DNA of 64,000 bases from a virus: IMG/VR virus record IMGVR_UViG_3300029454_000001, positions 1-64,000 of that record; one strand, written 5' to 3'. Made by a program: the position numbers and the translations under genes. Shown here piece by piece: positions 31,269 to 35,466 of the stretch (the stretch's first letter is position 1; each line of letters starts with the position of its first letter). A model generated the notes under the pieces. It worked only from the letters and a program-made list of their open reading frames with translations. It searched no databases and was not told the origin of the DNA.

Positions 31269-31586
31269 CTACCCCCTCTGTGATACTTTAGTTTTACCAG
31301 TGGTTATAATGTATTTTCCGTTATCTTTTACGCCAGTGACAGATACAGAAAAATAATCCCAAGTAAGGGCTTCCGTTGGAATTTCACATTGATTGTTTTT
31401 CAGTATTACTGGGTATTCTTTTTCCATTCTCCAAAATGAAGCAGCTGTTTTACATCCGTTCCACTCTGGTGAAAAGATAAACAATGCTTTAAGATATCCA
31501 GTCGTGCCCTTTACCAGTCCAGAGAAATCACACTTGGGATCTGGATAAATTCTTTGATTATTTACAATAAATCTTAATACTCTCAT
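31269..31586 (-). CDS. Hypothetical protein (105 aa), coupled to the RBP gene
   Basis: Internal Met with ATGA overlap to the stop of 31583..31969. 3-nt gap to the RBP gene. Confidence 0.5.
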   Translation of the reverse strand: MRVLRFIVNNQRIYPDPKCDFSGLVKGTTGYLKALFIFSPEWNGCKTAASFWRMEKEYPVILKNNQCEIPTEALTWDYFSVSVTGVKDNGKYIITTGKTKVSQRG

Positions 31587-31969
31587 GCAGTCATCCTTTC
31601 CATTCCAACAGGGGCTACATATGTGAATTGGTTTCCCAAAATATCTCTGGCTGTGCCAATCACGAAATGGCTGTAGTCTGCCAGAATATTGCATATAAAT
31701 TCCTCTGCGTCAACCCAATATCGTTTCTTGACCATGCGGTGGAGCTCTGGTAATAGACCATAGCTGAACATTACACAATGTCCTAACTCATGGATAAATA
31801 CACGGTTTAGAAGTTCTCCATGTAGGTTGTTCGCAATCGAAATAATATGGGTGGAATAATCCGATACTCCAAGTGTTCTGTTTCCTGTGCGGTCAATTAA
31901 AACATCATCTTGTGGTGGAACAAACTGCACTCTCCATAAATCTCCATTCATGTAGAATTGTCGTAGCAT
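31583..31969 (-). CDS. Small HExxH zinc-metallopeptidase-like protein (128 aa)
   Basis: Motif FIHELGHCVMF. Confidence 0.55.
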   Translation of the reverse strand: MLRQFYMNGDLWRVQFVPPQDDVLIDRTGNRTLGVSDYSTHIISIANNLHGELLNRVFIHELGHCVMFSYGLLPELHRMVKKRYWVDAEEFICNILADYSHFVIGTARDILGNQFTYVAPVGMERMTA

Positions 31970-32045
31970 GGTTTATTACCATCCTTTCTACGAAAAAAGC
32001 CCCTGCCGCATTAATTTGCGACAAGGACTTAATTCATTTATTGCT

Positions 32046-32678
32046 TTAGTTCATCTGCTGTACAAGTCTGGTCAGGTCAGTTTTCATCTGCTGTCTGAGC
32101 GTTGCATCTGCATCCGACCACATTTCCGTGAGATTACGGATAATATCAGATGTGTACTCCTTCATGGAATCATCCATTTTTCTTTTGGATTCCGTGTCTT
32201 TGGAATCATGATAATGCCTACGATTCTCATCGTATCTATCATAGGATTCGCCATATCTGGACTTCTTCCAATTCATATTCATACCATCATTTTCCATATC
32301 ACTACGCTCTGGATGATATCCCATGCGGTACATATTGCGCTCAAATTCTGGATTGTTTAAATACTCATCCATCCAGTCATCATCCTGCATATACAGATAC
32401 GGTCTATAGCCTTTTCTGGTTCCCCTACCTTTTGGAGCGAAACGCCCATTTGAATAGCGGTAACGGTCATATCCCATGCGTCCAAGATACTTTTCTTCCT
32501 GTTCGCATTCGTCCATAGCTTCTACGATTCTGTAATCTTTATCTGCACAAATCGCGCACTTTACGGATTCCATGCAGTCTTTCAGATCGTCCCAGTCTTG
32601 AGCACTGAGATTATCAAAGCCATGTGTTTTGGCTTTTTCCATAGCCCATTTTCCCATTTCCATTGCAACTTTATGCAT
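32046..32678 (-). CDS. Low-complexity Arg/Tyr/Asp/Met-rich protein (210 aa)
   Basis: ORF track. GRMGYDRYRYSNGRFAPKGRGTRKGYRPYLYMQDDDWMDEY..RMGYHPERSDMENDGMNMNW. No family recognised. Confidence 0.55.
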   Translation of the reverse strand: MHKVAMEMGKWAMEKAKTHGFDNLSAQDWDDLKDCMESVKCAICADKDYRIVEAMDECEQEEKYLGRMGYDRYRYSNGRFAPKGRGTRKGYRPYLYMQDDDWMDEYLNNPEFERNMYRMGYHPERSDMENDGMNMNWKKSRYGESYDRYDENRRHYHDSKDTESKRKMDDSMKEYTSDIIRNLTEMWSDADATLRQQMKTDLTRLVQQMN

Positions 32679-33103
32679 TACAGTGCCCCCTTTCTAACAG
32701 CCTGCGTAACAGGTGCTTCTGTCGTTGGGGCTGTACCATTAATTGCTTTCAAATTGTTGCTCGGACTACAAGCCGGATTTCCTAACATCTTGAATACTCC
32801 GCCAGTTGCACTTGTAGCTACTCTGGTTGCGTACTTCGTTCTGGTTCTTATCCCACAAGCCGTAATCTGTGCACAGCAACGATTTTCTAGCGGATACAAA
32901 GTTGTTCCTGTTCCTATCTGAATCATTACCGGAGCAGTAATTGTAGTGGCTTCTGGTATACTTTGTGCAACAACAATACAATATTTTTCTCCATTGTTGT
33001 AACTGCCTGCTGGGAGTGTGATTACAAGATTACCTCCTGTAAACGCAACAGCTTGGCTTATTACAAGACGGTTGCAGAGCTTACAAACATTTTTACAACT
33101 CAT
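32678..33103 (-). CDS. Cys-rich protein (141 aa)
   Basis: Internal Met after GAGAGGTAGAAAT. MSCKNVCKLCN..NRCCAQITACG..NPACSP. No family recognised. Confidence 0.55.
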   Translation of the reverse strand: MSCKNVCKLCNRLVISQAVAFTGGNLVITLPAGSYNNGEKYCIVVAQSIPEATTITAPVMIQIGTGTTLYPLENRCCAQITACGIRTRTKYATRVATSATGGVFKMLGNPACSPSNNLKAINGTAPTTEAPVTQAVRKGAL

Positions 33104-33181
33104 ATTTCTACCTCTCAATCAAAATAAGAGGTGAGCCGTAACCCACCTCTTAGAATTAGTCAACCTCTAAGGGCGAGTTAC

Positions 33182-34059: not shown

Positions 34060-34299
34060 TTATTTTATTCCAAACTGGCTCTTAACCTGCGACAGTATAT
34101 CGTCTGGATTAATATTTCTTTCTTTACAAAGATTTCTTGCAAGTTTTTCAATTCCTGCATTATCACCTTTTTCCATCATGTTAATTGCATTGTCAATTAC
34201 AGGATTATTTCCAGACTGTTGTTTCATCATATTGATTATGGCTTGTTGAGGATTCCCTCCACCACGTATCATCTGCATAAGTTGCATTGGATTCATCAT
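34060..34299 (-). CDS. Hypothetical Met/Asn/Gln-rich protein (79 aa)
   Basis: ORF track. 4-nt overlap with the upstream gene. Confidence 0.5.
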   Translation of the reverse strand: MMNPMQLMQMIRGGGNPQQAIINMMKQQSGNNPVIDNAINMMEKGDNAGIEKLARNLCKERNINPDDILSQVKSQFGIK

Positions 34300-34793
34300 C
34301 TCTGTTTACCTCCATTCTGCTTGGGTTCCGGTGTTCCAGACATTTGTGTCGGGAACATACTCTTTATTTCGGAAATCTCAGAACAAACATCGTTCCGAAG
34401 CTGATTAAACATAGCTTCTATGTCAATCGGTTTTTCTTCTGCCTTTGGTTGCTGTTGTTCTTCCGGATTTATAAGTCGATAAACAAAAATTCTACTTCTT
34501 CCATCTGCCTGTAATTGTTTTCTATATATTTCTGTTCCATCTGTTTTTGGATAATAAACAGGGTTTCCAGACATATCTACGTCTTTTGCCTTTACGGTAT
34601 CAATACCATCGACCATCTGTCCTTGCAACATGGGGATTTGTGGTACTTGTGGCATTTGTTGTATTGGTTGCTGAATCTGAGCCTGCCCGTATGGCATTGC
34701 CTGCTGATAACTATTCTGCAATTGTGCTAATCTATCTTGATACGGTTGTATTTGTTGAAATGGTTGTGCAAAATACGGATTACCATACTGCAT
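34296..34793 (-). CDS. Gln/Pro-rich protein (165 aa)
   Basis: ORF track. N-terminal QPFQQIQPYQDRLAQLQNSYQQAMPYGQAQIQQPIQQMPQVPQIPMLQGQ. Confidence 0.55.
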   Translation of the reverse strand: MQYGNPYFAQPFQQIQPYQDRLAQLQNSYQQAMPYGQAQIQQPIQQMPQVPQIPMLQGQMVDGIDTVKAKDVDMSGNPVYYPKTDGTEIYRKQLQADGRSRIFVYRLINPEEQQQPKAEEKPIDIEAMFNQLRNDVCSEISEIKSMFPTQMSGTPEPKQNGGKQR

Positions 34794-34883
34794 ATCTCAA
34801 ACCTCCCTTGTTTTTATAACTATATTTTACAATAATAAGAGGTTAATTAACACGCCATGATAACGCCATAAATACGCCACATT

Positions 34884-35123
34884 TTATGAATACAAAGAAA
34901 AGCCCCGACAATACATCGGGGCGACTTTCATAATTTTCTTCTTTAATTTTCTGTTTATGCGGTCTACTGTTCTTGTGCTGTAACCCATGATTTCTGAAGC
35001 TTCTGCAAGTGTTTTTTCTTCGTAAACACGCAATCGGAATAACTCTTTTTCTCTGGAATCAAATCCAGCTTCACGCAAATAGAAGATTCTTTCATCTTCC
35101 GAAAAGTCTTTATAATTATCCAT
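34884..35123 (-). CDS. Small sigma-70 region-4-like HTH protein (79 aa)
   Basis: Internal Met after AGGGAGGACGGTGGA. REKELFRLRVYEEKTLAEASEIMGYSTRTVDRINRKLKKKI. Confidence 0.6.
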   Translation of the reverse strand: MDNYKDFSEDERIFYLREAGFDSREKELFRLRVYEEKTLAEASEIMGYSTRTVDRINRKLKKKIMKVAPMYCRGFSLYS

Positions 35124-35154
35124 TCCACCGTCCTCCCTGTTAGTGGAATCAATA

Positions 35155-35466
35155 TTACACCGGGAAAATGCCTTTAAGGGCAAAGCCTAAAATAATACCG
35201 ATTATGCCAGTTATGACATAAGCAATAATTTTGTCCTGTAATTTTCCTGGTTTTTCCATGAGTGCTTTTAAATTGTCGTTCATTTCGTCAACTGTATCTT
35301 TGATGTGTCCCAGATCGTTGTTGTATAAAGCAATTTTCTGTTCTAGCGCATTGATACGATTAAAAAAGCCTTCATCCCTTTTGGAATGCTTTTCTTTCAT
35401 CTCACGGACGGCATTTTCCAATTCTTCCAAGCGGTGTTCGTTGATACACTCGTGTTCACATCCCAT
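35155..35466 (-). CDS. XhlA-like protein (coiled coil plus C-terminal TM)
   Basis: HRLEELENAVREMKEKH..ALEQKIALYNNDLGHIKDTVDEMNDNLK, then the TM segment IIAYVITGIIGIILGFALKGIF. This is the architecture of PBSX XhlA-type lysis accessory proteins. Confidence 0.55.
   Translation of the reverse strand: MGCEHECINEHRLEELENAVREMKEKHSKRDEGFFNRINALEQKIALYNNDLGHIKDTVDEMNDNLKALMEKPGKLQDKIIAYVITGIIGIILGFALKGIFPV

Follow-up and report, generated by a model that had tools for sequence, protein, structure and literature searches.

Introduction

Temperate phages carry morons, autonomous units of promoter, gene and terminator that are inserted between conserved genes. Here we examine a block of cysteine-rich and low-complexity proteins (positions 31,269 to 35,466) in virus record IMGVR_UViG_3300029454_000001, of which a 64-kb window (the whole stretch of DNA analysed, positions 1 to 64,000) was taken from a complete 78.3-kb phage genome with direct terminal repeats. 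The block consists of an XhlA-like gene, a self-contained cassette encoding a helix-turn-helix (HTH) protein and five products that we term A to E, and the genes for a small HExxH protein and a protein of 105 amino acids (aa). The cassette is one copy of a portable, moron-type accessory operon with its own putative regulator. The operon combines a conserved, cysteine-rich helical protein (C), an exchangeable small beta partner (D in this phage), low-complexity helpers (A, B and E), a private HTH protein and often a small metallopeptidase. Its position in the genome changes, and it passes among temperate, virulent and crAss-like phages of two phyla.

The cassette resembles morons in that it has its own promoter-like site and terminator-like hairpins, is inserted at a junction between modules, varies in location and is missing from rare close relatives. 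It differs in two respects: where a moron is a single small gene, the cassette forms a conserved operon, five to eight genes long, that has its own putative activator, and, unlike the morons of temperate phages, it is also found in virulent and crAss-like phages. The putative regulator recalls the RinA, ArpU and DUF1492 type of protein, which activates late genes in Firmicute phages and is similar to sigma region 4. In both cases a small protein with a sigma-region-4 HTH is encoded directly upstream of the presumed target unit. The cassette protein is, however, far shorter (63-90 aa), is tied to the cassette and not to the terminase or late operon, and is only predicted to bind DNA.

Two described systems share features with the ends and the composition of the block. 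The XhlA-XhlB-XlyA module of Bacillus subtilis PBSX has a counterpart in the 103-aa coiled-coil protein of the block, which ends in a hydrophobic helix and matches an XhlA-type PHROG; at one further locus (L021) an XhlA-like gene, a holin gene and a GH25 lysin gene precede the cassette. In contrast to PBSX, no holin or lysin gene adjoins the XhlA-like gene in this phage, the Pfam match is below cut-off and no cassette product matches a lysis family. BclA-type exosporium fibres and endospore-appendage fibres consist of a stalk and a trimeric C1q/TNF-like knob with cysteine-rich anchoring proteins. Common to these fibres and the cassette would be a long stalk, a small knob rich in beta structure and an abundance of cysteines, and D has weak structural matches to the C-terminal domains of collagen-repeat viral proteins. 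Unlike BclA-type fibres, the cassette lacks collagen repeats, neither D nor its alternative D' has a sequence match in Pfam, NCBIfam or the PDB, BclA and C1q chains are absent from the fold matches of D in the PDB, and phages carry the cassette in Bacteroidota hosts that do not sporulate.

C itself invites comparison with class I viral fusion subunits and phage spanins. It possesses a hydrophobic segment rich in glycine and aromatic residues, long predicted helices and a conserved cysteine cluster, and database records name some of its homologues 'spike protein/glycoprotein'. Against the likeness, C has no sequence or profile match to either class, its structure model is unreliable, and the family occurs in phages of monoderm hosts, where a spanin is not needed. 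A literature search found no paper describing the cassette or the C family, and nothing relevant on YjcZ or endospore appendages in connection with prophages.

Results

The cassette is portable

Relatives of C were taken from metagenomes and from 80 species-representative genomes, and their surroundings were scored with the proteins of the window. A and B mostly precede C, and E and the HExxH gene often follow it. The cassette is found in at least five different kinds of context: (i) between the gene labelled 'connector' and the neck gene, in this phage and in L001-L004 and L068; (ii) at the edge of a prophage beside the integrase or host genes, with its gene order unchanged (L005-L007, L010); (iii) after XhlA, holin and GH25 lysin genes and next to the host ruvC in Anaerotruncus colihominis DSM 17241 (L021); (iv) with the portal or minor-head genes on one side and those for scaffold and capsid on the other (L025, L062); (v) among the early genes of a Bacteroides phage. 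The Pfam families of adjoining genes were tallied at about 42 non-redundant loci. Minor capsid protein 2 (n = 10), lysins (n = 6) and assorted host genes lie upstream, whilst scaffold (n = 11), dUTPase (n = 5), integrase (n = 3), NrdD and NrdG and host genes lie downstream. No neighbourhood is dominant.

Dispensability was assessed in 80 phages with a 'connector' at least 94% identical to that of this phage, about 70 of which had enough flanking sequence. The cassette is kept in 68 of these 70 relatives, with protein identities of 72-100% except for a second allele of B, and so it clearly pays its way. The two others lack it in part or largely. In L117 genes B to E and the HExxH gene are missing and a GDSL-like gene occupies their place. 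In L156 a deletion removes D and E and fuses C in frame to the HExxH protein. The fused gene (11931-12932 of that locus) combines C, as far as its proline-rich region, with the last two thirds of the HExxH protein; this is either a genuine variant or an artefact of assembly. These variants indicate that the cassette is not needed to build this virion, yet it is almost always kept.

Table 1. Features of the block and the basis on which each was assigned; positions are those of the window
Feature	Positions	Strand	Basis
XhlA-like coiled-coil protein with C-terminal hydrophobic helix, 103 aa	35155..35466	-	phrog_937 'hemolysin', E 3e-14, full length
Sigma-70 region-4-only HTH protein, 79 aa	34884..35123	-	Pfam Sigma70_r4 (PF04545), 29.1 bits against a cut-off of 24.1; TIGR02937, E 1e-8
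Intrinsic-terminator-like hairpin with T run, overlapping the 3' end of the HTH gene	34902..34922	-	consensus match
Three direct TGGCGT repeats, ~11 nt apart (about one helical turn), upstream of the promoter-like site	34851..34880	-	read from the sequence
Promoter-like site TTAACC-16-TATAGT before A	34819..34846	-	consensus scan only
A, Gln/Pro-rich, 165 aa	34296..34793	-	phrog_21718, E 7e-18
B, Met/Asn/Gln-rich with conserved ARNLCKE motif, 79 aa	34060..34299	-	open reading frame and relatives
C, core 'stalk' protein (predicted), 266 aa	33182..33982	-	phrog_16490, E 6e-69
Terminator-like hairpin with T run between C and D	33125..33152	-	consensus match
D, 'knob' (predicted), starts MSCKNVCKLCN, 141 aa	32678..33103	-	AlphaFold2 model; database relatives
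E, Arg/Tyr/Asp/Met-rich, 210 aa	32046..32678	-	family alignment by eye
Strong terminator-like hairpin (14 pairs) with T run, ending the A-E unit	31997..32030	-	consensus match
HExxH (HELGH) metallopeptidase-like protein, 128 aa	31583..31969	-	phrog_1233, E 1e-11; phrog_13742 'peptidase', E 1e-4
Protein with no assigned function, 105 aa	31269..31586	-	phrog_19695, E 6e-19, residues 37-135 of the long open reading frame

A putative private regulator and its candidate targets

An earlier note, made from the sequence alone, had recognised a sigma-region-4 mini-protein in the block, and the Pfam match to this family is above cut-off (Table 1). The TIGR02937 match covers the C-terminal part of that model. 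Sigma-70 region 2, which a true sigma factor needs for core binding and -10 recognition, is absent; the protein matches region 4 only. A homologous HTH protein of 63-90 aa is encoded upstream of the cassette at about 30 loci in unrelated contexts. The 79-aa protein is thus a putative dedicated activator of the cassette promoter, and the three TGGCGT repeats are its putative operator. In relatives the HTH gene is likewise followed by a terminator and then by lineage-specific repeats before A, and this recurrence fits a dedicated activator-operator pair.

The number of promoter-like sites in the region does not exceed that in shuffled sequence. A strong ribosome-binding site lies between the candidate promoter and the start of A. 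The hairpin between C and D may be an attenuator that sets the ratio of the two proteins. Taken together, the terminator-like hairpin at the HTH gene, the phased repeats, the promoter-like site, the hairpins after C and E and the HTH gene that travels with the unit suggest that the cassette is autonomous. No RNA family of Rfam was matched in the block.

C, the conserved core protein

C begins with an acidic tail, which is followed by a hydrophobic segment flanked by glycine and tryptophan, a long helical region and a tail rich in cysteine and glycine (GCNTYGNGCC). The family alignment identifies C95, CCC148-150 and C168 as invariant, and the C-terminal end is rich in cysteine and glycine throughout. 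The AlphaFold2 (AF2) model is consistently helical, but its predicted local distance difference test (pLDDT) score of 43 was too low to support a fold search. In 196 members of the family the hydrophobic segment begins near residue 29, its strictly apolar run has a median of 11 residues (18 when glycine, tryptophan and tyrosine are counted), and it is acidic on both flanks with about one lysine or arginine each. This short run between acidic flanks would make an atypical anchor, and any insertion of C into a membrane is a prediction.

The earlier note had likened the N-terminus of C to YjcZ sporulation peptides. The likeness holds for composition and does not extend to a match with a family model: C has no NCBIfam family at E <= 0.1, which is weak evidence since the presence of a YjcZ model in the scanned set was unchecked. 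Pfam, NCBIfam and PDB sequence searches gave no match for C, and no holin, spanin or other lysis PHROG was matched. Clustered at 90% identity, the family comprises at least 7,885 relatives, and not one of them carries a Pfam domain or has an informative name.

D and the partners that replace it

The AF2 model of D is confident (pLDDT 86.8, predicted template modelling score (pTM) 0.75) and shows an eight-strand beta structure behind an N-terminal tail of the form C-x3-C-x2-C. At least 4,904 close relatives form 306 clusters at 50% identity, and D has no Pfam, NCBIfam or PDB sequence match. A fold search of the PDB found no counterpart; the best match (E 0.03) was a phage baseplate or fibre chain. 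In BFVD, once its own family is set aside, D matches the C-terminal parts of tail-fibre, receptor-binding and collagen-repeat viral proteins; these matches are weak (TM ~0.45, E 1e-4 to 1e-3).

C is followed by D at 36 of the 80 genome loci and by a protein of 140 aa, D', at the other 44. We rejected the idea that D and D' are relatives, as hhalign finds no similarity between them. At first sight D' may recall the C-terminal domain of BclA; it has no match in Pfam, NCBIfam or PDB profile searches. In Bacteroidota phages a third type of small beta-rich protein stands after C. All of these partner types retain cysteine pairs or clusters. By eye, no coupling is evident between the type of C tail and the type of partner, D or D'.

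The low-complexity proteins A, B and E

In 27 aligned cassette copies A comprises an N-terminal low-complexity region rich in glutamine, proline and tyrosine, a predicted small conserved domain, a coiled coil and a basic tail; it has no Pfam or PDB match. Amongst the phages sharing the near-identical 'connector', the identity of B ranges from 28 to 99%. This reflects two alleles, which are 28% identical to each other and more than 90% identical within themselves, and their presence between flanks that are at least 94% identical indicates recombination inside the cassette (relatives L093-L172). E has helical N- and C-terminal domains around a segment rich in arginine, tyrosine, glycine, aspartate and methionine that is probably disordered. 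Its family counts at least 1,467 relatives, all without names and Pfam domains, and neither B nor E has a match in Pfam, NCBIfam or among solved structures.

The sizes of the C, D and E families indicate that the open reading frames of the block are not chance ones. The earlier note recognised none of the protein families, and this has proved a fair description: no relative of C or E carries a Pfam domain, and scans of all products against Pfam, NCBIfam, PHROG and PADLOC gave as functional signals only the XhlA-like, sigma-region-4 and peptidase-like ones. Searches of the PDB by sequence and by profile gave nothing significant for C, D, D' or A, and PADLOC, which covers anti-phage defence, gave matches at the level of coiled coils only (E > 1e-3).

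Hosts, and the question of sporulation

Named genomes with C are mostly those of Lachnospiraceae, Oscillospiraceae and other Clostridia, and C was seen in just 8 of the 399 Clostridia species genomes that were sampled. Among deposited phages, tblastn finds C in Butyrivibrio phage Ceridwen, C. perfringens phage XP41-N3, Bacteroides phage C3_41T2LP and several crAss-like phages. C3_41T2LP was isolated from plaques on B. uniformis. Only a lytic cycle was observed for the Ceridwen isolate, and its authors judge the phage virulent (PMC7372960). The C proteins of Bacteroidota phages are full-length (phrog_16490, E ~1e-47) and keep the Gly/Trp hydrophobic segment, the CCC motif and the Cys/Gly tail. 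Beside them lie the third small beta-rich protein and an A-like protein with a small domain and a coiled coil. The crAss-like phage cr52_1 (L090, 3376-6640) also encodes an Arg/Tyr/Asp-rich protein next to C. Its cassette genes are readable only when TAG is translated as glutamine; the C homologue contains two in-frame TAG codons and each of two neighbours contains seven.

The earlier note had suggested that the block encodes spore-coat, exosporium or other sporulation-related proteins. The composition (cysteine clusters, tyrosine and glycine richness, a glycine-flanked hydrophobic peptide) does recall coat, exosporium and YjcZ proteins. The earlier note had also named homologues in non-sporulating hosts as evidence that would speak against this proposal, and the phylogenetic distribution of the C family includes such hosts. 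Full-length C with variable small partners is encoded by a virulent Butyrivibrio phage and by phages whose Bacteroidota hosts do not sporulate, and this argues strongly against a spore-coat role. Models of YjcZ, coat proteins (CotY/ExsY-like and similar), Ena (DUF3992) and BclA match no product, and PDB profile searches and the fold search with D are also negative for them. Upstream regions of relatives, inspected by eye, show housekeeping-like -10 boxes and operator-like repeats, and no sporulation-sigma promoters were seen.

SpoIVA is present in 28 of 31 cassette-bearing Bacillota genomes and in 297 of 391 other sampled Clostridia. This enrichment is marginal (Fisher p = 0.046, uncorrected for phylogeny; 0.17 when two probably mis-binned non-Firmicute bins are counted), and the test is confounded by phylogeny and metagenome binning.

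Two cassette-bearing prophages, L010 and L042, seemingly lie inside a split sporulation-type sigma gene, one of the genomes being Lachnospira intestinalis. The halves are at ~254.4 and ~311.5 kb (L010, G002 contig 1) and at ~61.5 and ~115.4 kb (L042, G420 contig 2). They match different parts of the SigK model, share a strand and are ~57 kb (L010) and ~54 kb (L042) apart. The C-terminal fragment reads ...KTQMETAEEIGISQAQVSRLEK... and is presumably SigF/SigG-like, to judge by its appearance. These prophages resemble a skin-like intervening element. In L006 and L007 (8002-8400) the cassette end of the prophage abuts a host gene fragment of the Mn-catalase family, truncated so that it spans model positions 101-197 of 284, and the prophage may interrupt that gene. 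The Mn-catalase family includes the spore-coat protein CotJC.

Genes around the cassette

All open reading frames listed in the earlier note were found on the minus strand at the coordinates given there. On this strand the terminase, portal, scaffold, small head protein and major capsid genes are followed by a gap and then by genes for the tail tube, tape measure and other parts of the tail. The block does interrupt the morphogenesis genes, as had been noticed, with the capsid side on one flank and the tail side on the other. The identities of the major capsid protein (Phage_cap_E), portal, terminase, tail tube and tape measure were confirmed. The names 'connector' (35574-35894) and 'head-closure' (28777-29169) come from position only, as no Pfam or PHROG model matched either gene. 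A search of the complete 78-kb genome for a tyrosine integrase (PF00589) gave no match, serine recombinases not having been searched; the phage may not be temperate, or may integrate by another route.

The XhlA-like label was upheld by PHROG (Table 1), whereas the Pfam XhlA model (PF10779) gave 19 bits (E 0.0016), below its cut-off of 34.7. The gene adjoins the cassette in this phage lineage and is absent from the cassettes of L005-L007 and L010. Its neighbours are the 'connector' and HTH genes, with neither holin nor endolysin adjacent. A recognisable endolysin is present inside the window: the sole Amidase_2 domain (E 3e-25) lies in a 308-aa open reading frame (4751-5677), 30 kb from the XhlA-like gene. 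No GH25 gene was found in this phage, and relatives carry a Phage_holin_5_2 gene among their tail genes.

The HExxH protein has only sub-threshold Pfam matches, to DUF6782 and SprT-like. Its gene is loosely tied to the cassette, standing before or after it at many loci. The gene matching phrog_19695 probably starts at an internal ATG at 31586, which gives a product of 105 aa instead of 141. It is found in 47 of the 80 close relatives and is probably not part of the cassette.

Beyond the block lies a gene for a 683-aa protein (29214-31265), the C-terminal part of which is pectinesterase-like (Pfam E 6e-8). This slot is variable, and the gene is present in only 2 of the 80 close relatives. The counterpart in L156 is a protein of 608 aa that is alike over its first ~220 residues and has a different C-terminal part. 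In L117 it is the GDSL-like gene that stands in this slot, in the same replacement that affects the cassette genes B-E and the HExxH gene. The slot looks like one for an exchangeable, carbohydrate-active appendage gene.

Discussion

We tentatively propose, with somewhat less than even confidence, that the operon encodes a cysteine-linked stalk (C) with an exchangeable knob (D) that is switched on by the HTH protein and anchored at the host envelope during the lytic cycle. The HTH protein would bind the three TGGCGT repeats and activate the promoter before A. The operon would then build a hetero-oligomeric 'stalk and knob' in which C is a helical, cysteine-knotted rod, held by its Gly/Trp-flanked segment at the cytoplasmic membrane of the host or in another hydrophobic core. 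D would be a small beta-sandwich knob, open to exchange and joined to the Cys/Gly tail of C by disulfides or a bound metal. A, B and E would serve as low-complexity, coiled-coil helpers or scaffolds and the HExxH protein possibly as a maturation protease. The complex would act at the envelope of the infected cell by excluding other phages, controlling release or offering a docking platform, and would be neither a core part of the virion nor a spore layer. The presence of the cassette in the virulent Ceridwen, and the failure to find a tyrosine integrase here, point to a role in the lytic cycle.

Several observations weigh against this proposal. These can be listed as (i) the acidic flanks of the hydrophobic segment, with about one basic residue each, do not obey the positive-inside rule, which makes membrane anchoring weak; (ii) by inspection A, B, D and E have no signal peptides, which would confine any envelope role to the cytoplasmic face; (iii) the helical model of C is of low confidence; (iv) the promoter (at consensus level) and the three terminator-like hairpins are consensus matches and not transcripts; (v) near-universal retention amongst close relatives implies strong selection; (vi) the fold of D is nearest to phage fibre tips in BFVD, which points to the virion.

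The last of these leads to the main rival, that the cassette encodes an accessory fibre or decoration of the virion; the earlier note had named virion decoration proteins of an undescribed type as its alternative. Trimers of C would form a coiled-coil fibre on the head or neck, tipped by D, D' or the third type (D''), that helps the phage adhere to glycans of the host or of mucus or makes the particle more stable, with A, B and E as assembly chaperones. The confident model of D resembles the tips of fibre, receptor-binding and collagen-like proteins, its best PDB match is a baseplate or fibre chain, and receptor-binding modules typically exchange unrelated knobs on a conserved stalk in this way. 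The absence of signal peptides is as expected of virion proteins, and the cassette lies inside the morphogenesis genes here and at roughly a quarter of the genome loci. The likeness of D to fibre tips is, however, weak and unsupported in the PDB. Homologues in crAss-like and Bacteroides phages are annotated 'viral fiber' or 'spike', but probably on mere coiled-coil matches. No cassette product matches a structural PHROG or Pfam family and no capsid or tail attachment domain is recognisable. An activator, promoter and terminators of their own would be unusual for structural genes; the cassette often follows lysis genes, sits amid early or nucleotide-metabolism genes or occupies a prophage end; and natural variants do without it. 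No particle proteomics was found published for Ceridwen, C3_41T2LP or XP41-N3, and the Ceridwen paper (PMC7372960) contains none. We regard a virion fibre as unlikely on balance, and as the alternative to be taken most seriously.

An accessory role in lysis or egress is a weaker candidate, and we consider it distinctly improbable. C would be membrane-active through its fusion-peptide-like Gly/Trp segment, helical repeats and cysteine knot, and would cooperate with XhlA-like, holin or spanin-type proteins to disrupt the envelope or time lysis. Neighbouring genes lend this some weight. An XhlA-like gene is directly upstream here and in L068, with others nearby in L021, L042 and L057; the cassette follows the endolysin in Ceridwen and the XhlA-holin-lysin genes in L021 and is downstream of amidase and holin genes in XP41-N3; cr52_1 has a weak Rz-like spanin match (phrog_214, E 6e-4) two genes upstream; and six lysins are amongst the proteins just upstream in the tally of about 42 loci. 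Yet most cassettes are not beside lysis genes, the Amidase_2 endolysin of this phage is distant, and the region after the lysis genes is also the classic site for morons. C matches no lysis PHROG, and its family serves phages of both Gram-positive and Gram-negative hosts, whose envelopes pose different problems of egress. A bolder reading, which we hold to be about as improbable, makes the cassette product a membrane-active phage machine of a kind not recognised before, common to phages whose hosts are Gram-positive Clostridia and those whose hosts are Gram-negative Bacteroidota. A fusion-protein-like rod, with the Gly/Trp hydrophobic peptide, helical repeats and cysteine knot, would bear interchangeable knob caps, assemble with prion-like Gln/Tyr-rich and Arg/Tyr-rich partners and mediate a new envelope step (such as egress, exclusion or cell-to-cell contact).

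The cassette could also be a superinfection-exclusion or anti-defence moron in which no structure is assembled and the proteins act separately on incoming phages or host defences. Its autonomy, its dispensability in rare variants and its positions in the integrase-repressor gap and at prophage ends are those of exclusion genes. The strict multi-gene order and the obligatory pairing of C with a D-type partner across two phyla suggest a complex instead, the PADLOC matches do not rise above coiled-coil noise, and virulent phages carry the cassette too; we rate this reading as more doubtful than a lysis role. Sporulation cargo, whereby the products would join or modify the spore coat or exosporium of a lysogen or alter sporulation, is very improbable and, as a general function, largely refuted by the host range, the negative family models and the housekeeping-like upstream regions, together with the lack of a tyrosine integrase match in this phage, despite the suggestive composition, the marginal SpoIVA enrichment and the prophages found at sigma and Mn-catalase genes.

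Thousands of gut phages carry the cassette, which ranks among the commonest conserved modules of several genes in phages of the human gut and the rumen, with hosts that span two phyla. Three cultured phage-host pairs carry it (Ceridwen, C3_41T2LP and XP41-N3), which makes the question of its function directly testable. That function, once known, would explain a recurrent portion of gut-phage dark matter, and it could reveal a new class of phage device at the envelope or in the virion.

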